Positions 8,651 through 55,215 of a stretch of DNA of 64,000 nucleotides are shown here, piece after piece. Each line of letters opens with the position of its first letter. Positions within the stretch are counted from its first letter, which is position 1. Where the stretch lies: the NCBI GenBank assembly GCA_964583625.1, contig CAZOVA010000001.1, forward strand, positions 159,349-223,348, read 5' to 3'. This stretch comes from an uncultured Pseudomonadales bacterium (GTDB lineage: Bacteria; Patescibacteriota; Microgenomatia; UBA1400; PJMF01). The translations under genes were made by a program, and so were the position numbers. The notes under the pieces are model-generated. The model did not search any database, was not told the origin of the DNA, and worked only from the letters and a program-made list of their open reading frames with translations.

Positions 8651-11600
8651 ATGTCTTCGTTTAGCGACCATTTTCAAAGTGAGTTACAAAAATTAAATCC
8701 GCAACAGAGAGAGGCAGTAGAGTCTTTGGAGGGACCAGTCCTAGTTTTTGCTGGTCCAGGAACGGGTAAAACTCAAGTTTTGACCTTGCGGATTGCCAAT
8801 CTTATTGATCAAGGCTTAGCTGGCCCAGAAAATATCTTAGCCCTTACTTTTACTAAGGCAGCAGCAGCTAACATGCAAAAAAGATTGGCAGAATTGATTG
8901 GCATGACCGCTTTTTCTGTCACCTGTCAAACTTTTCATGGCTTTTGCCAGGAAATCATTACGGCTCACGGTGAAGATTTCCCTTTTGCTTATGAGAGTCA
9001 AGTTTTGGATGAGCTGACTGCTAGGGAAATAATGGAAGAGATAATTGACAGTTTACCTTTGCAAATTTTGCGTCCAGCGGGGGATAAATTTCATTATCTC
9101 AAAACCCTATTAGATAAAATTAATGCTTTAAAACAAGAAAATATTACTGTAGACAAATATGCCGTCCTCTTGGAAGCCGCTCGTCAAGAACAACTCGATT
9201 TTATAGCTCAAGAACAAAGTAAGAAAAAACCCAGACAAGGGGAAATCATCAAAAGCCAAAAAAAACTGCAAAAGCAAGAGGAGTTATTATTGGTTTACAC
9301 TGCTTATCAAAAAGAGATACAAGCAAAGGGCTTTCATGACTATGCTGATATTATTTTACGCACCATTGATGTTTTAAAAAATAAAACTGAACTTTTAAGT
9401 TCTTATCAGGAACAATTTCAATATCTACTAATAGATGAATATCAAGATGCTAATAATGCTCAAAGTCAACTAGCTCAGCTTTTGACATCCTATTGGCAAG
9501 ATCAAGCTAATATTTTTGCTGTTGGGGATGCTCAGCAGTCAATTTACCGTTTCCAAGGAGCAAATTTGGAAAATTTTCTTCATTTTAAAAAGATTTATCC
9601 AGAAGCTAAAGTAATTGAACTCAAAACTGGCTACCGTTGTGGCGATTATCATTATCAGTTAGCGCAGACATTGTTTGACACCGCTGAAGGGGAGCAAAAA
9701 TTATTACCAGTCAGTGGTGAACCTTTGCAAAATTTTGCTCGACGCAAAGGGGAAGCGACCGCCATCACCTCTTATCCCAATCGATTAACAGAGCTCTTAG
9801 AATTAGCGGAAAGAATTCAAAGTTTGCACCAGGAAGGGGTACCTTGGGAAGAGATGGCTGTTTTATACCGGAATAATAATGAATCAGAGGATATTTTGAC
9901 CGTTTTAACTCAGTATCAAATTCCTGTGGAGATAGAGGGGGGGACAGATGTCTTAGCTCAAGAAATAATTAATCAATGGCTCATGTTGTGGCGTTTTTTT
10001 GCAACCGTAGATGATAAGCGACTACATGATTATTATTTAGGACAAATTCTTTGGCAACCATGGTGGAATTTGGACCCCTTAGAGATTATGCAAGTTTTGC
10101 AAACAGCCAAAAAAGAAAAACAAAACTTATTAACAGTCATGTTGCAAACAAAAGACAAAAATCAGAACTCCTCAAAGCGGTGGACAGTTAATAAGCTGGC
10201 TCAACAATTGAGCAAATGGTTAAAAGATAGTTATGAACAAAAAGCTGATCGTTTCAATCAACAATTGATGCAGGACAGCCAACTTTTACCTTTTCTCGCT
10301 CAGCAAAAAAACTATTTACCTTTATTAACTTATTTTTATAGTTTGCAAAAAAGATTGCAGTCCTGGGTCAGTAAAAGTCAATCACCACTATTACTTTCTC
10401 AAGCTCTTAGTAAAATTGATTTAATGCAAAACCATCATCTCAAATTGGAAGCGCAAGATCTGAATTTAGGCGAGGGAGCAGTGGCTTTGGCTACAGCTCA
10501 TAAAGCTAAGGGGAGAGAATGGCAGTATGTTTTTTTAGTTGGTTTAAATAAAAATAATTGGCACAAAAAAGATCGCCAACTTTTACCTTTACCTGAAGGA
10601 ATTATGACCTTGCAAACCATCGGTCATGAGGAAAAAGAAGACGAAACTAAGAGATTACTTTTTGTGGCTTTGACTAGAGCAAAAAATAAAACCTTTATTA
10701 GTTGGCATGAACAGGAAGAAGAAGAATCTTTAAGTCCTCCCAAATTGCCATCTCCTTTAGTTTACCTTCTAAAAGAAAAGGCGCCGTCACACACTTGGAA
10801 AGAAGTATCCAGTCAGGTGACTGGCGAAAAAACACAGGCGGCGATGACAACCTTATTGCAATTACCTCCAGAGCATGATTTTTCGGTGGCGGCGCGGCGC
10901 TTTCTTCACCAACAAGCAAAAAAATTAATTATGTCTCCTTCCGTTTTGAACGCTTATTTAGAGGATCAAGATTCTTTTTGGCAAAATTATCTTCTTGACG
11001 CTCCGCTAGAACCCACTACGCCAGCAAAAGAGTTTGGTAGTAGTTTACATTTTGCCTTAGAAAAACTATATCAACCTCGGACTAGGAATGAAGGGTTTTT
11101 ACCTCTAGATCAAGTGCAAAAAATTTTTGCACAAGACTTTTTGCAAAAAGATATTGATGAGGCAAGTAAAAAAAGCTTCCTAGCTTTAGGTAAACAATCA
11201 TTAGCTGCTTATATTCAAACCTACGGTCAAACGGATCTCGAAACTAAAACTTTGGCAGTGGAAAAAAAATTTGGTTATCAATTCAAATTACAAGTTCAAG
11301 GGGTCCCAATCAAAGGAAAAATTGATCGTTTAGATTTTATTGACGACAAGCATCAAACCTTGCGGGTTATTGATTATAAATCAAGCAGTTATTTTAGTTT
11401 GAATGCCTTACTCTCCGGAGAATTTGGTCGAAAAAAACTCAGTGAAAGAGAAAAATTATTGCCTTCTTTTTTACAAAGTAGTATCAAAAGACAATTACTT
11501 TTTTATAAACTTTTATGCCAACTGGAACCGAACTTTCCTTATCAAGTTGAAATTGGAGCAATTGACTTTATCAAAAAATCTAGTTCTGAGAAAAAACTAG

Positions 11601-11726: not shown

Positions 11727-13601
11727 ATGGAAAATAATCATCACTCTCCAACAGAACAAAACCCTTCTGTCTTTAAAGGAGAGTCTGTTAAGGAAAACTT
11801 TCAATCAGCTCTTGAAGAAAATACTCCAACTCCTCAACAATTACAAGAACTGGTAGCGGCTTTAAGCGAATCTCTTTATGTTCCCTTAGGAAATCTATAT
11901 TTAAGCGATACTGATATTGGTAGAGAATATGAAGCTTTAAGTGAATCTTTTGATAAAGCTAAAAAAGAACTTTTGCAGTTATTAGATAATAATAATTTAT
12001 CAGCAGAGGATAAAATTTATTTAATTCGAAACTTTTATTTCAGAATGATTGCTGATGGGATAATGTCACCCCTAGAGACAGCTAGCGGTCAATTGGCTCT
12101 AAGAACTTTGGAAGAAAGAGATATTAAAGAGTCGAGAGATATTCATTTGTCAATTATGAGAGGTCAGGGTATTTCTGAGGAAAAAATCTTGGACATTCTT
12201 CAACAAAAAGATGAAGAATTTCGCATTCGAGCTCGTGAGCGTGCTTTAAAAGGAATGGAAAGGACCGGTCTAAATTTTGCTTTGGAAGGATTGAGACAGC
12301 AAAAAGCTGATAATGTAAAAAAAGCTTTTAATGCTTTTTTACAAGAAAATGAAATAAAAAATTCGGTTGCAGTCAGAGAAATAATGCTTAATGAAGAAAA
12401 CCAAATAACTAATCAGTCTCAATTGGAGACAGATTTTGCCGATGGTAACTTTCTTTTTCATAGCACTGGAGTAGATAAGGCTTTGCAAATTTTACAATCA
12501 GGTTTTTTAGTTAATAGCTTAGCTTTACGAAAACAAGGAAAAGCTTTAAACGGAGCGACTAATAATTCTGGCATCGAGGGCATTTCTTGGAGTTTGAATC
12601 AAATCAGCGCCATGCCAGGAGATCGCTATCATCTAGTAGGCTTTGTCAGCAATATTGATAGTATTTTAGCCAATGATATGCAACTCACTGTACCTTCGCG
12701 CGCTGCTCCTTATGAAGTTATTCAGGTGGGAAAAGATTTGTCGGCCCAGGATTTTTATGCCTATAAAAATCAACTTGAACTGTATGAGGATTTTGGTTTT
12801 GGTGATAAAAATAGTGTTTTGTCCAATTTGATATTTCTTAGGTCTGAAGCAGATAATCAAGGGGACAAAGCAACAATTTTTCCTTCAATGATTTTAGAAA
12901 AATTAAAGTCAGAACCAGAATTTTTTCTCCAGGAAGAAAATTTAGATCAATACTATTCTTTTGAGGGAGACAGTATTTTACTAAGTGAAGATTTATTACA
13001 ACAAACAGAAATTCCCACTGGCTTAGTTTTTTTAAGAGCATTGATAAAAAGCGGGCAACTTCAGGCCCTTCATCGTTTTAGTGGAGTTGAAAATTTGAGT
13101 CAGGCAGTAGAGGTTTTGCGTAACAAAGAAGCTTATGATGATTTTATGAATGTTTTTAATAAACAAATCAAGAAAAATAGCCAGGAGATGAATAAATTTG
13201 ATGGACAAATAAAGCCTTTGGCCCAACCAGTTTCTGAAATGTTTTTTGTGGTTCCCGATCATGATTTGTCTTCTTGGAAAGAAATATTATCTCGTTGCGC
13301 GCAACAACCAAAAGGACTTTTGATTTATGATGGACAAAAAGTTCGTTTAGAAAATTTTGCTTCTCGTCACAGCGGTGACCATAATCAATTAACTCAAATT
13401 TTACGTCAGGCTATTCCGGCTAAAAGTGAAGCAGAAGGAGGTTTGAGTTATGGTCAATATTTCTTACAAAAAGACATGGCTACGACTGGAAGGACAGGTC
13501 ATCGTCTCCATGTTTTGAGAGAAAAAGATACTCAGAACCGTCAAACATTAACCAAAGAAAAATGGTTGGATTATAAAAAAAGTTTAGCAAACGATACCTA
13601 A
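11727..13601 (+). CDS. Acidic cytoplasmic hypothetical protein (624 aa) with a candidate ADP-ribosyltransferase/Tpt1-like H-Y-E motif set in its middle
   Basis: 20 nt downstream of the helicase-nuclease. FLFHSTGVDKALQILQSGF resembles PARP/Tpt1 'HG[ST]...IL..G[LF]'. Downstream GISWS and PYEVIQ sit at plausible Y/E positions. No signal peptide or TM. Confidence 0.4.
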   Translation: MENNHHSPTEQNPSVFKGESVKENFQSALEENTPTPQQLQELVAALSESLYVPLGNLYLSDTDIGREYEALSESFDKAKKELLQLLDNNNLSAEDKIYLIRNFYFRMIADGIMSPLETASGQLALRTLEERDIKESRDIHLSIMRGQGISEEKILDILQQKDEEFRIRARERALKGMERTGLNFALEGLRQQKADNVKKAFNAFLQENEIKNSVAVREIMLNEENQITNQSQLETDFADGNFLFHSTGVDKALQILQSGFLVNSLALRKQGKALNGATNNSGIEGISWSLNQISAMPGDRYHLVGFVSNIDSILANDMQLTVPSRAAPYEVIQVGKDLSAQDFYAYKNQLELYEDFGFGDKNSVLSNLIFLRSEADNQGDKATIFPSMILEKLKSEPEFFLQEENLDQYYSFEGDSILLSEDLLQQTEIPTGLVFLRALIKSGQLQALHRFSGVENLSQAVEVLRNKEAYDDFMNVFNKQIKKNSQEMNKFDGQIKPLAQPVSEMFFVVPDHDLSSWKEILSRCAQQPKGLLIYDGQKVRLENFASRHSGDHNQLTQILRQAIPAKSEAEGGLSYGQYFLQKDMATTGRTGHRLHVLREKDTQNRQTLTKEKWLDYKKSLANDT

Positions 13602-22365: not shown

Positions 22366-22442
22366 GCGCCCATAGCTCAAGTGGTTAGAGCACCAAGCTT
22401 ATACCTTGGCGGTTCGAGGTTCGAGTCCTTGTGGGCGCACCA
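22366..22442 (+). tRNA. tRNA-Ile, anticodon TAT (UAU; decodes AUA)
   Basis: Acceptor GCGCCCA/TGGGCGC. Ile-like D-arm GCTCAAGTGGTTAGAGC. Anticodon stem CCAAG/CTTGG with loop CTTATAC. T-arm CGAGGTTCGAGTCCTTG. Discriminator A, CCA encoded. Confidence 0.85.
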
Positions 22443-41044: not shown

Positions 41045-41200
41045 TTTTATATTATAGCATGCAGGATCTTGAGAAATAAGCTTTGCGCTAATATTAAACA
41101 AAGTAAATAATTCACACTAATTTGATAAAACTGGACAAAGTTAAAGAGATTTGCACAACTTTTTATGTTTAGCAATCAAGAAATTTTGCCTTACAGTTTG

Positions 41201-41273
41201 AGCCTTCATCGGGATTCGAACCCGAGACCTCAGTCTTACCAAGACTGCGCTCTACCACCTGAGCTATGAAGGC
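41201..41273 (-). tRNA. tRNA-Thr (anticodon GGT), CCA not encoded
   Basis: Reverse-complement reads GCCTTCATAGCTCAGGTGGTAGAGCGCAGTCTTGGTAAGACTGAGGTCTCGGGTTCGAATCCCGATGAAGGCT. Anticodon loop TTGGTAA. Confidence 0.9.
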
Positions 41274-52304: not shown

Positions 52305-52835
52305 ATGATTCAAAAAGATTTCATCAATGCCGACCAACTTAATCTTGATAGTTTTGCTTTAGCCAAGAAAATCTATGATTCTGGTTTTCGCCCCGACGCC
52401 ATCATTGCTCTTTGGCGCGGTGGTTCACTGGTTGGGATTGCAGTACAAGAATTTTTTGCTTATAAAAAAGTACCTCATTATCACAGCATCGTCAAAACTT
52501 TTGCTTATCAAGGGATTGATCAGAGGAGTGAGGTGGAAGTGGAGCCCATGGAGCATATCTTTTCCCATCTCTCAAAGAAGACAAAAGTTCTTCTAGTTGA
52601 CGACATTTTTGACACTGGCTCTACCATACAAGCAGTGAAAAAAGCCTTAGAGCCGCTAGTGGCCCAAATAAAAACAGCCGTTGTTTTTTATAAGCCTAAG
52701 AGACGCTTGGTTGATTTTTCCCCAGACTATTATTTGCACGAAACAGATAGCTGGTTGGTTTTACCTCACGAACTACTAGGTTTAACTGATGAAGAGCTGA
52801 AAATCAAAGATAGTCGGTTGCATAAACTTTTATAA
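52305..52835 (+). CDS. Type I phosphoribosyltransferase (purine salvage, Hpt/Xpt-like)
   Basis: PRPP-binding motif [14 protein letters not shown]. 176 aa. Confidence 0.7.
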
Positions 52836-52921: not shown

Positions 52922-53608
52922 ATGAGTTCTCCTCAAGAAACGACAGTCAATAGTTTTCCCCTTATTGGTGAAATGTTACCAGAATTGAAAGTGATCACGA
53001 CTCACGGACCAAAAACTCTTCCAGCAGATTATGCGGGTAAATGGTGGGTGCTTTTTAGCCATCCAGCAGATTTTACTCCAGTTTGCACCACGGAGTTTGT
53101 CGCTTTTCAAAAACTTTACCCTAAATTTCGAGAGTTAAATTGTGAATTGGTCGGTTTGAGCATGGATCAAGTTTTCTCTCATATCAAATGGGAAGAGTGG
53201 ATCAAAGAAAAGCTGGATGTGCAAATTGAATTTCCTATTATTGCCGACACGGGAAAAGTGGCCACTAGACTAGGATTTTTACATCCAGGAAAAAATAATG
53301 ACACTAATACGGTGAGAGCTGTTTTTGTCATTGATCCTGAGGGAAAAGTGCGGACAATTCTTTATTATCCTCAAGAATTGGGTCGCTATATGGAGGAAAT
53401 TGTCCGGATTGTCAAAGGCTTACAAATTGTGGACGCCAATAAAGTGGCTTTACCAGCCAACTGGCCCAATAATGAGCTTTTTGCAGATGATGTCATTGTC
53501 CCTCCAGCCAAGGATGTCAAAACCGCCAAAGAAAGATTGGCTCAAGCTAAATCGGGTGAACTAACTTGTCTTGATTGGTGGTTGTGTCACAAACCGCTTA
53601 AAAAATAA
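52922..53608 (+). CDS. 1-Cys peroxiredoxin (Prx6-like); start moved to ATG 52922
   Basis: [13 protein letters not shown] peroxidatic-Cys motif. ~228 aa. Extended -10 TGTTATAAT upstream. Confidence 0.85.
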
Positions 53609-53691
53609 GTCTTTGGCAAAAAATACTTGACCTAACTTGATTTTTTAGCCTTTTAGTATTAAAATATCGGCTCTGGCGTTCTTTTAAAATT

Positions 53692-54107
53692 GGGGATGTA
53701 TTGCTTTGATGTGAAAATTACTTTTTACTGGCTAAGTATCTTTGATTGGTAGATATAAAAAATTAATCAAAATTTAACTGCCGATAAATTCGTGCAAAAA
53801 GCAAAATCATTATTGCTAGACACTTCTCGTGGCTTAGCTGATGCTTTTGCTCCAACAAAAGCAGCTTATTTAGTTGCTTAAGTAGGCATTCGCAGAATCT
53901 AGTTTTATCGTCGCTAATTTGCGGGTGAAAAAACAGCCGATACCTCTTTTTCAAGAATAAATGCGCTTGAAAAAATTGCAACTCAAACATTTGCTGGTTA
54001 AAATCTAGTTTTTCAATTTACTTATTTAACTAAAGACAAAAATTGAATATTTTAGTAGAAGGTAAAAGTGATTGTTTACAGACACGAGGTCAAACTCGTC
54101 ATCTCCA
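53692..54107 (+). ncRNA. ssrA: tmRNA (transfer-messenger RNA) with tag ORF ADAFAPTKAAYLVA*
   Basis: 5' GGGGATG pairs with 3' CATCTCC, giving the G3:U70 Ala identity pair. T-arm-like ACGAG-GTCAAA-CTCGT abuts the acceptor 3' strand, then discriminator A. Internal frame gct gat gct ttt gct cca aca aaa gca gct tat tta gtt gct taa at 53837-53881. Confidence 0.7.
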
Positions 54108-54112
54108 CATTT

Positions 54113-54472
54113 TTATTTATTTTTCCCACCTCGCCAATTGCTGAGACCTAAGATGATATTGCCCCAACCAGCTAACCAGAGCAGAAATGGCACTAAGTGA
54201 TAAAGGGCAACCCTAGTCAGCCACCGCCCCCGATAGTATCCCTCTTCTAGAAAAAGAGTGGCAATAGTCTGTTCAGTCAAGTCTTTGACAATGTGTTTTT
54301 GATATTCAAAATGAATAATGAGAAATAAAAAACCTAGTAAAAACCAAACATAACGCCTTTGTGGTTTTTTCAGTAAAAGTAATAAACTGCTTATTAGCGC
54401 CACGGCTAAACCAATGAGTAATTGATTGTGGATATAGGTAAAATAAATTAACTGAAATAAACCCTGTTTCAT
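54113..54472 (-). CDS. Small 3-TM membrane protein, hypothetical
   Basis: ORF with three hydrophobic helices. 4-nt overlap with the upstream CAP-domain gene. Confidence 0.45.
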   Translation of the reverse strand: MKQGLFQLIYFTYIHNQLLIGLAVALISSLLLLLKKPQRRYVWFLLGFLFLIIHFEYQKHIVKDLTEQTIATLFLEEGYYRGRWLTRVALYHLVPFLLWLAGWGNIILGLSNWRGGKNK

Positions 54473-55215
54473 TTTCTTTTCTTATAGCTATTGCCCTTTA
54501 GATTAAAGACGATTAAACCAACAATTAAAAAAATTAGAATAATAAAGGACTTTTTTATTCTTGTGCCAAACCAGCTATTCTTATTAGCTAATAATTCTGA
54601 TTCTGGCATCACTTCACCAGCTAAAACCAAACTGTCACTTTGGTGATCATAAATAGCCACTTCGCGGTTGTGCTGAGCACTCAGTTTTGGTTGAGCAAAG
54701 AAATTAACAATTAAAAGTACTGGCTCACCGTTTATTTCTCCATCTAAAATCGCCAAACCGATATCACTAAAATTACCATTGAGAATATTAGCTCGATGAG
54801 TCGCTGAATTCATCCAGGCTGCCACCAAACTAGCTTCATTTTGGAAGTCTCTACCCAAATTTTCACCAGCACTTTGGTAAATATAGCCAGCTTGGCTGAT
54901 AAAGCTCCAAGGTTGCACTCCCTGTGGGCTGACATGAGCCCAATAGTTAGTGGCAAACATATTTTCTCCCTTAACTTGAGCTGCCTGATTCAACTGTTCA
55001 TGAAAAACTAATGGACCAAAACCTTTTTTGCCTCTCTCTAAATTGAGAAGGCGTAAAATTTCTTCCTTTTGCAATTTAGTAGAGACGCCTAGAACTTTAG
55101 TGGTTGACAGAGGTACAGAATTAATTAAAAAATTTAATATTATTGCCAAGAAAAAAACGGTGGCTGGAAAAACTAATTTCCAATTAATAATGGTTCTTTT
55201 TTTACTCATAAACAA
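54469..55215 (-). CDS. CAP/SCP (PR-1-like) domain protein, N-terminally membrane-anchored
   Basis: LNLERGKKGFGPL..., HVSPQG, GENLG, WMNSATHRANIL (CAP motifs). Confidence 0.7.
   Translation of the reverse strand: MFMSKKRTIINWKLVFPATVFFLAIILNFLINSVPLSTTKVLGVSTKLQKEEILRLLNLERGKKGFGPLVFHEQLNQAAQVKGENMFATNYWAHVSPQGVQPWSFISQAGYIYQSAGENLGRDFQNEASLVAAWMNSATHRANILNGNFSDIGLAILDGEINGEPVLLIVNFFAQPKLSAQHNREVAIYDHQSDSLVLAGEVMPESELLANKNSWFGTRIKKSFIILIFLIVGLIVFNLKGNSYKKRK

Follow-up and report, generated by a model that had tools for sequence, protein, structure and literature searches.

The 64,000-nucleotide stretch analysed here, a segment of contig CAZOVA010000001.1 that we call the window, very probably carries at 53692-54107 of its plus strand the one-piece transfer-messenger RNA (tmRNA) gene, ssrA, of a bacterium of the Patescibacteria (candidate phyla radiation, CPR). 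This reading is drawn from sequence comparison, and it describes an unusually divergent copy of a gene whose function, ribosome rescue, is ordinary and textbook. In a permissive Rfam search of 1.2 kb around the locus (53300-54500), the tmRNA model RF00023 aligned over its full length (model positions 1-374) with 53692-54110 on the plus strand, with an E-value of 6.1e-11, or about 3e-9 when rescaled linearly to the whole window. The 419-nt sequence, folded to its minimum free energy (MFE), closes the acceptor stem, the T arm and the long helix 2 unaided; no shuffled sequence among 100 was as stable as its -103.3 kcal/mol (z = -3.84). At about 416 nt the RNA lies within the normal length range of tmRNAs, in a window of about 36% G+C.

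An initial annotation had proposed an unannotated tmRNA with these ends, and the proposal is upheld by the full-length Rfam match, by syntenic orthologues that score above the curated threshold and by covariation. The motifs on which it was built are present in the sequence as described: GGGGATG at 53692-53698 and CATCTCC at 54100-54106 form seven pairs including G3:U70, the hairpin ACGAG-GTCAAA-CTCGT at 54084-54099 abuts the 3' acceptor strand, and a discriminator A stands at 54107.

Orthologous RNAs beside pnp

As relatives we took contigs encoding polynucleotide phosphorylases (PNPase, gene pnp) 70-75% identical to that of the window, whose own best named relatives are Patescibacteria/CPR ('Candidatus Moranbacteria', Microgenomates and Pacebacteria). 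Four distinct related Patescibacteria contigs (L084, L148, L086/L087 and L144/L145) carry an RF00023 match beside pnp, and all four matches exceed the gathering score of 47 bits (Table 1). The window RNA is thus the orthologue of syntenic RNAs that the curated model accepts, and it resembles them in its pnp neighbourhood, its acceptor stem, its 6-nt T-loop and the resume motif UUAACU|GCCGAUAAAUUCGU. Within the window species itself, two assemblies from separate samples (L001 and L002) cover the region; both carry an identical copy of the tmRNA, and neither contains a gene call across 53609-54112.

The synteny does not extend to every contig reached in this way. Seven further PNPases (P0012, P0014, P0015, P0022, P0002, P0004 and P0026) led to contigs that hold no tmRNA within reach, either because synteny is lost or because the contigs are too short. 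A scan of metagenome contigs for the resume motif TTAACTGCNGAYAAATTYGT gave 56 loci, in none of which nhmmer found a related tmRNA; L143, one weak hit among the 56, had no Rfam match, and the motif loci were taken as chance matches.

Secondary structure and the tag reading frame

Covariation was assessed on an alignment (A3) of the five sequences with exact ends, namely those of the window, L084, L148, L086 and L144; the full-length clade alignment has 425 columns. From A3, RNAalifold recovers the acceptor stem, T arm, helix 2 and several hairpins, with compensatory change at 34 of 108 pairs. A count confined to 87 pairs of canonical helices (acceptor stem, helix 2, one stem of pseudoknot PK1, helix 5, both stems of PK2, one stem of PK4 and the T arm) finds 92.5% of cells paired and 32 pairs changed on both sides. 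Sliding the 3' partners by one to three columns lowers these values to 32-52% and 2-8, and neither observed value was reached in any of 500 shuffles. The two segments of helix 2, the long helix that replaces the anticodon arm and links the tRNA-like domain with the remainder of the molecule, are 90% and 97% paired, with 8 of 25 pairs changed on both sides, while helix 5 is 94% paired, with four of its seven pairs so changed. The T stem, paired in every one of the five sequences (100%), covaries at two positions (ACGGG/CCCGU, ACGAG/CUCGU, AAGGG/CCCUU), and all seven pairs of the acceptor stem, which also forms in the MFE fold, are invariant.

The alignment program MAFFT misregisters parts of PK1, PK3 and PK4, and each sequence was therefore searched singly for its best H-type pseudoknot, in four alignment-defined segments scored against mononucleotide shuffles. 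Pseudoknots of this type occur at four equivalent places, with sequences that differ between genomes. For PK2 the window scores 33 against 24.0 +/- 2.7 in shuffles; its second stem (S2) changes from UAUCG/CGAUA to GAUUAAC/GUUAAUC or GAUUGA/UCAAUC across the sequences and covaries with UGAUUAAC/GUUAAUCG and GAUUGAU/GUCAAUC in relatives, three of its seven pairs having changed on both sides. PK3 scores 32 in the window against 20.6 +/- 2.4, a value that none of 100 shuffles attained, and takes forms such as CGAUCAG/CUGAUCG with UAACGCG/UGCGUUA in relatives. In PK4, S2 is 98% paired and five of its nine pairs have changed on both sides. Covariation extends to the first stem (S1) and S2 of PK2 and to S2 of PK4, and for PK2-PK4 the window and most relatives score well above shuffles; in L084 (PK2 and PK3) and L144 (PK3) the search settles on a different pseudoknot, whose score is not significant. 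Of the four pseudoknots, PK1 has the weakest support. The automated search recovers the expected stems in L086 and L144 only (ACGUU/AACGU with GAGAAA/UUUCUC, and AGCGUUUU/AAAACGCU), favours alternative stems in both the window and L148, and does no better than shuffled sequence in L084; its S2 columns are 89% paired.

Between PK1 and PK2 lies the frame of the proteolysis tag. The Rfam alignment sets the resume codon of the model on GCC 53780, and not on GCT 53837. This GCC stands 11 nt after PK1, is in frame with TAA 53879-53881, and falls within a 20-nt stretch (UUAACU|GCC GAU AAA UUC GU) that does not vary among the five sequences. The frame has the expected GCN resume codon, a stop codon at helix 5 and a hydrophobic, alanine-containing C-terminus (...AAYLVA; C-terminal peptide ...DAFAPTKAAYLVA). 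It is open in each of the five sequences, for 32-33 codons to UAA, where both other frames contain stop codons in every sequence, and conservation under pseudo-translation is 0.78 in the tag frame against 0.58 and 0.54 in the others. Variable columns number 11, 7 and 14 at the first, second and third codon positions; about half of the codon differences are synonymous (some 40%-65% according to the pair), with serine kept through a TCA-to-AGC switch and leucine through CTT, TTA, TTG, CTA and CTC. On these patterns the tag evolves as coding sequence does. Sequences of L144 and the window repaired in silico, as described below, lead ARAGORN to report the same tags of 32 and 33 residues. The tag encoded in the window is accordingly predicted to be 33 residues long, with 34 added to a protein once the charged alanine is included.

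The initial annotation had the frame and the stop codon right, and the frame it noted, GCT GAT ... GTT GCT TAA at 53837-53881, is present in the sequence. Its start was misplaced, so that only the last 14 of the 33 codons were found; given the conserved, coding-like frame from GCC 53780, those 14 residues are the C-terminal part of the longer tag. An 8-bp hairpin, UGCUUUUG/CAAAAGCA, flagged as 'terminator-like', also lies within the tag frame at 53842-53863 (plus strand). The hairpin shares bases with the 5' strand of helix 5 (53859-53865), is seemingly absent from the relatives as judged by the alignment, and may represent an alternative fold of the mRNA-like region.

The atypical tRNA-like domain and rival explanations

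The tRNA-like domain of this clade is atypical in ways that matter to detection programs. A canonical T-loop has 7 nt of the form UUCRANN, beginning with the near-universal U54. In all five sequences the loop has 6 nt and an invariant closing G-C pair; its letters are GUCAAA in the window against UUCAAU or UUCGAU in the relatives, which keep the U in first position. The D-loop analogue lacks the GG..UUCGAC motif in all five, reading UAUUGCUUUGAUG in the window and U-UUGUUUUGACG in the relatives; L084 shares the 5' motif UUUGAU with the window, where the other relatives have UUUGAC. Both the D-loop GG motif and a 7-nt T-loop are typical of tmRNAs but not strictly defining, and since orthologues with the same T-loop length pass the Rfam threshold, the 6-nt loop is a variant that does not exclude the RNA from the family. 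The 3' CCA is not encoded: the window reads A-C-A-U after the acceptor stem, and all five sequences have 'AC' followed by variable bases.

ARAGORN misses all four relatives' tmRNAs in their unmodified form, and in silico repair indicates what it lacks. The window tmRNA is detected only after the D-loop motif is changed to GGNUUCGAC and the T-loop extended to 7 nt, whereas L144 is called once any one nucleotide is added after the second base of its T-loop. A 7-nt T-loop alone is insufficient for L084, L148 and L086, and addition of CCA or a swap of the T arm alone leaves ARAGORN blind to these three and to the window. The atypical tRNA-like domain contributes to the ARAGORN miss and probably also to the window's sub-threshold Rfam score; its deficit of about 30 bits plausibly comes from the G at the first loop position, UUUGAU in place of UUUGAC, and AT-rich stems.

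Several results nevertheless weigh against the identification as a tmRNA. Of the standard detectors by which the initial annotation could be checked, ARAGORN finds three tRNAs and no tmRNA in the 64-kb window, and the full-length RF00023 match at the claimed ends scores 32.2 bits (bias 20.1) against a gathering score of 47, so that Rfam at gathering thresholds reports the same three tRNAs only and nothing at this locus. The gathering score is a curation threshold and not a biological feature. In addition, the window's T-loop is one nucleotide short with G at the U54 position, 13 of 86 window pairs are unpaired in a column-based count (some of which reflects alignment register), and the five sequences amount to about three independent lineages. 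A tblastn search with two SmpB sequences found no smpB in the 64-kb window or the relatives' flanks, a result that is uninformative with only 64 kb in view.

Points of this kind might be taken to mark a decaying ssrA relic, recognisable by ancestry and without function, a reading that would account for its low Rfam score, its AT-rich drift and its aberrant T-loop (G54, 6 nt). The window sequence is indeed the most divergent of the five: it shares 55-63% identity with the others, which share 62-83% with one another, its Rfam score of 32 bits compares with 60-70 in those four, and it has 11 pair-breaking changes unique to its lineage in the column-based count; degenerate tmRNA or SmpB is also documented in reduced genomes (PMC4131195). 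Some of those 11 changes are register artefacts, however, and they stand beside ten window-unique compensated double changes and five one-sided changes that keep pairing. The compensated doubles argue for a structure still under selection and against a decaying relic. The window's own pseudoknot stems are intact, its 33-codon frame is unbroken and retains the hydrophobic ...LVA end, and its acceptor stem, G3:U70 pair and discriminator are untouched. The 6-nt T-loop, being common to otherwise well-conserved orthologues, is a trait of the clade and does not argue for decay. A second, canonical ssrA elsewhere would have spoken against the initial annotation, but ARAGORN and Rfam found no other tmRNA within the 64-kb window. 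We consider loss of function very unlikely.

We are equally disinclined to accept a functional tmRNA with a short tag of 14 residues, ADAFAPTKAAYLVA, with GCU 53837 as the resume codon and the part of the frame ahead of it as untranslated spacer. Its frame and stop codon are identical to those of the long tag, GCU is a common resume codon, and the tags of well-studied bacteria usually have 10-14 residues. However, GCU 53837 lies 68 nt past PK1, where the usual spacing is the 11 nt seen for GCC 53780; the 19 codons that precede it are open in all five sequences and show synonymous leucine and serine changes; the nucleotide-invariant motif is at 53780, while the relatives differ at 53837; and ARAGORN's rule picks GCC. 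That the locus is instead protein-coding, with its likeness to a structured RNA incidental, has a negligible chance of being right. It would make a real small gene of the 75-codon, ATG-initiated open reading frame (ORF) on the minus strand, which does exist. Its product has no Pfam match, no gene is called here in the two independent assemblies of the species (L001 and L002), the frame is broken in all four relatives, whose longest open minus-strand frames run to 27-64 codons in differing frames, and the region evolves through compensatory base-pair changes on the plus strand. The initial annotation's dismissal of this ORF as spurious therefore holds good, and we regard it as a by-product of an AT-rich RNA gene. 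The divergent tmRNA with a 33-residue tag is the reading we carry forward.

Table 1. Coordinates of the tmRNA gene and its parts in the window, and of the tmRNAs and tags of related contigs (S1 and S2, first and second pseudoknot stems)
Feature	Position	Strand	Details
tmRNA (ssrA) gene, very probable	53692-54107	+	416 nt to discriminator A; RF00023 match, orthologues
Promoter-like TTGATT-17 nt-TAAAAT	53637-53665	+	consensus scan only, 9/12 matches; weak evidence
Acceptor stem, 5' strand GGGGAUG	53692-53698	+	pairs with 54100-54106 (CAUCUCC), including G3:U70 alanine identity pair
D-loop analogue UAUUGCUUUGA	53699-53709	+	alignment A3; without the usual GG..UUCGAC
Helix 2, 5' strand	53710-53735	+	pairs with 54052-54080; MFE pairs
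PK1	53737-53768	+	S1 UAUCU (53737-41)/AGAUA (53751-55), S2 GAUUG (53744-48)/UAAUC (53764-68); stems read by hand
Tag frame (predicted)	53780-53881	+	resume codon GCC 53780-53782, 33 sense codons, UAA 53879-53881; encodes ADKFVQKAKSLLLDTSRGLADAFAPTKAAYLVA
Helix 5, AAGCAGC - loop UUAUUUA - GUUGCUU	53859-53879	+	Rfam alignment; final base is the first of the stop codon
PK2	53887-53942	+	S1 CAUUCGCAGA/UUUGCGGGUG, S2 UAUCG/CGAUA; automated search
PK3	53947-53993	+	S1 UUUUUCAAG/CUUGAAAAA, S2 UAAAUG/CAUUUG; automated search
PK4	53995-54047	+	S1 UGGUUAAA/UUUAACUA, S2 UUCAAUUU/AAAUUGAA; automated search
T arm, 5-bp stem ACGAG/CUCGU, 6-nt loop GUCAAA	54084-54099	+	sequence, covariation
Acceptor stem, 3' strand CAUCUCC, and discriminator A	54100-54107	+	sequence
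75-aa ORF antisense to the tmRNA, spurious	53763-53990	-	no Pfam family, no gene calls, frame not kept
Tag, window			ADKFVQKAKSLLLDTSRGLADAFAPTKAAYLVA (33 residues)
Tag, L084			ADKFVSKAKSLLLDTVGAVANVFAPANYAYVA (32 residues)
Tag, L148			ADKFVSKAKSLLLDTASAVASAFAPANYAYVA (32 residues)
Tag, L086			ADKFVSKAKSKLLDTAGALANTFAPVNYAFVA (32 residues)
Tag, L144			ADKFVSKAKSKILDTAGALANAIAPVNYALVA (32 residues)
L084 tmRNA	12862-13276	+	69.8 bits; GCA_030539095.1, JAUNST010000001.1
L086 (L086/L087) tmRNA	12417-12825	-	63.2 bits
L148 tmRNA	4749-5159	+	60.6 bits
L144 (L144/L145) tmRNA	10346-10751	-	60.3 bits

With regard to the surroundings of the gene, the promoter-like site in Table 1, noted in the window only, ends 27 nt upstream of the mature 5' end. 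Downstream there is no more than a T-rich tract in the window, where a convergent 119-aa gene has its stop codon beginning 3 nt past the Rfam match; G+C-rich, terminator-like hairpins (GCCACTT..AAGTGG and CCCGCCTGCAGCGGG) lie 3' of the tmRNAs in L148 (about 5172-5185) and L144 (about 10325-10340). Although ssrA stays close to pnp in the window and the four relatives, L086 and L144 have it in the opposite orientation, and a peroxiredoxin gene stands directly upstream of ssrA in the window species only, which together mean that the immediate ssrA neighbourhood has been rearranged among close relatives. Between pnp and ssrA lies a phosphoribosyltransferase gene (52305-52835, plus strand), found at the same position in the CPR relatives L084, L148 and L151. 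Among species-representative genomes its matches come only from distant phyla (Kiritimatiellia, Lentisphaerae and spirochaetes), do not exceed 54% identity and give no useful synteny; the gene may have been transferred laterally long ago, or the clade may be poorly represented.

The three tRNA genes of the window lie at 359-444, 22366-22442 and 41200-41273; tRNA-Tyr and tRNA-Ile encode CCA, and tRNA-Thr, like the tmRNA, does not. The organism would therefore have to depend on a CCA-adding enzyme for some of its tRNA-like RNAs. The tRNA-Ile (22366-22442, plus strand; found by ARAGORN and scoring 67.4 bits with the Rfam tRNA model) has the anticodon UAU. In most bacteria AUA is read by a CAU tRNA that carries the lysidine modification, and a UAU tRNA-Ile is uncommon, so the gene may bear on AUA decoding in this lineage.

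Expected mechanism and comparison with known tmRNAs

The mechanism of tmRNA is well established for the family (PMC4383926, PMC3985003), and the window RNA would be expected to follow it. A transcript with a short leader would have its 5' end trimmed by RNase P and its 3' end trimmed before the CCA is completed, and alanyl-tRNA synthetase would charge it with alanine through G3:U70. SmpB and EF-Tu would then bring it to a ribosome that has stalled, with its A site empty, at the end of a broken mRNA, where the nascent chain would move onto the alanine and the template would switch to the GCC resume codon, so that (A)ADKFVQKAKSLLLDTSRGLADAFAPTKAAYLVA is appended. Normal termination at UAA would allow the ribosome to be recycled and the tagged protein to be degraded by way of its hydrophobic C-terminus, ...YLVA.

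A further proposal is that the tRNA-like elbow has been remodelled in the trans-translation system of this clade and that its tag serves some purpose besides targeting proteins for degradation; we consider it improbable, if worth stating. The elbow differs in its 6-nt T-loop and the missing D-loop GG, and in the window species also in the G that replaces the near-universal U54. If the proposal were true, the contact partners in the D-loop and T-loop would have changed together, which would imply altered recognition by SmpB, EF-Tu or modification enzymes. The N-terminal part of the tag, ADKFV.KAKS.LLDT, is conserved at the amino-acid level, and this, with a length of 33-34 residues, makes a second function possible, such as binding of an adaptor or protease.

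If the identification is correct, the clade adds three unusual traits to the tmRNA family: a shorter T-loop, a non-canonical D-loop analogue and a tag of 32-33 residues ending in ...(Y/F/L)VA. Annotation pipelines that rely on ARAGORN or the default Rfam cut-off would report this genome as lacking ssrA. Any claimed loss of trans-translation in reduced CPR genomes needs comparative or sub-threshold searches; the tag sequence could in turn help to find tagged proteins in metaproteomes. We found no description of peculiarities in Patescibacteria tmRNAs in the literature searched. Most CPR genomes appeared after November 2012. The census of the tmRNA Website, with 1716 unique sequences, used RefSeq genomes downloaded in that month (PMC4383926).

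Set against the tmRNA (SsrA) of E. coli, which is also described by RF00023, the window RNA has the same order of domains: acceptor stem with G3:U70, T arm, helix 2, PK1, tag, helix 5 and PK2-PK4. It differs in its tag, which has 33 codons and ends ...YLVA where that of E. coli (ANDENYALAA) has 10 codons, and it departs from the standard RF00023 tmRNA in its score (32.2 against 47 bits), its 6-nt T-loop GUCAAA, the missing GG..UUCGAC and the unencoded CCA. The relatives' tags have 32 residues, begin ADKFV.KAKS and end (Y/F/L)VA; compared with them, the window tag is longer by one codon and diverges in its C-terminal third (APTKAAYLVA, as against APANYAYVA). Mycoplasma tmRNAs have tags much longer than the 10-11 residues of proteobacteria, and the window RNA resembles them in its long tag and in a C-terminus other than ALAA, although the tag sequence is unrelated and the lineage different. 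The ALAA ending is described as highly conserved outside Mycoplasma, whose tags end in AFA (PMC3985003); the endings found here (...YVA, ...FVA and ...LVA in relatives, ...YLVA in the window) include no ALAA.

A parallel in circumstance is offered by the degenerate tmRNA and SmpB pairs of reduced endosymbionts, whose genomes are likewise small and AT-rich; standard finders miss them or give them low scores, and manual, comparative searching was required (Hudson, Lau and Williams 2014, PMC4131195). Unlike those degenerate tmRNAs, the window RNA keeps all of its domains, maintained by compensatory change, and, since its orthologues pass the curated threshold, it belongs to a known family, as a new and divergent member, and does not represent a new kind of element.

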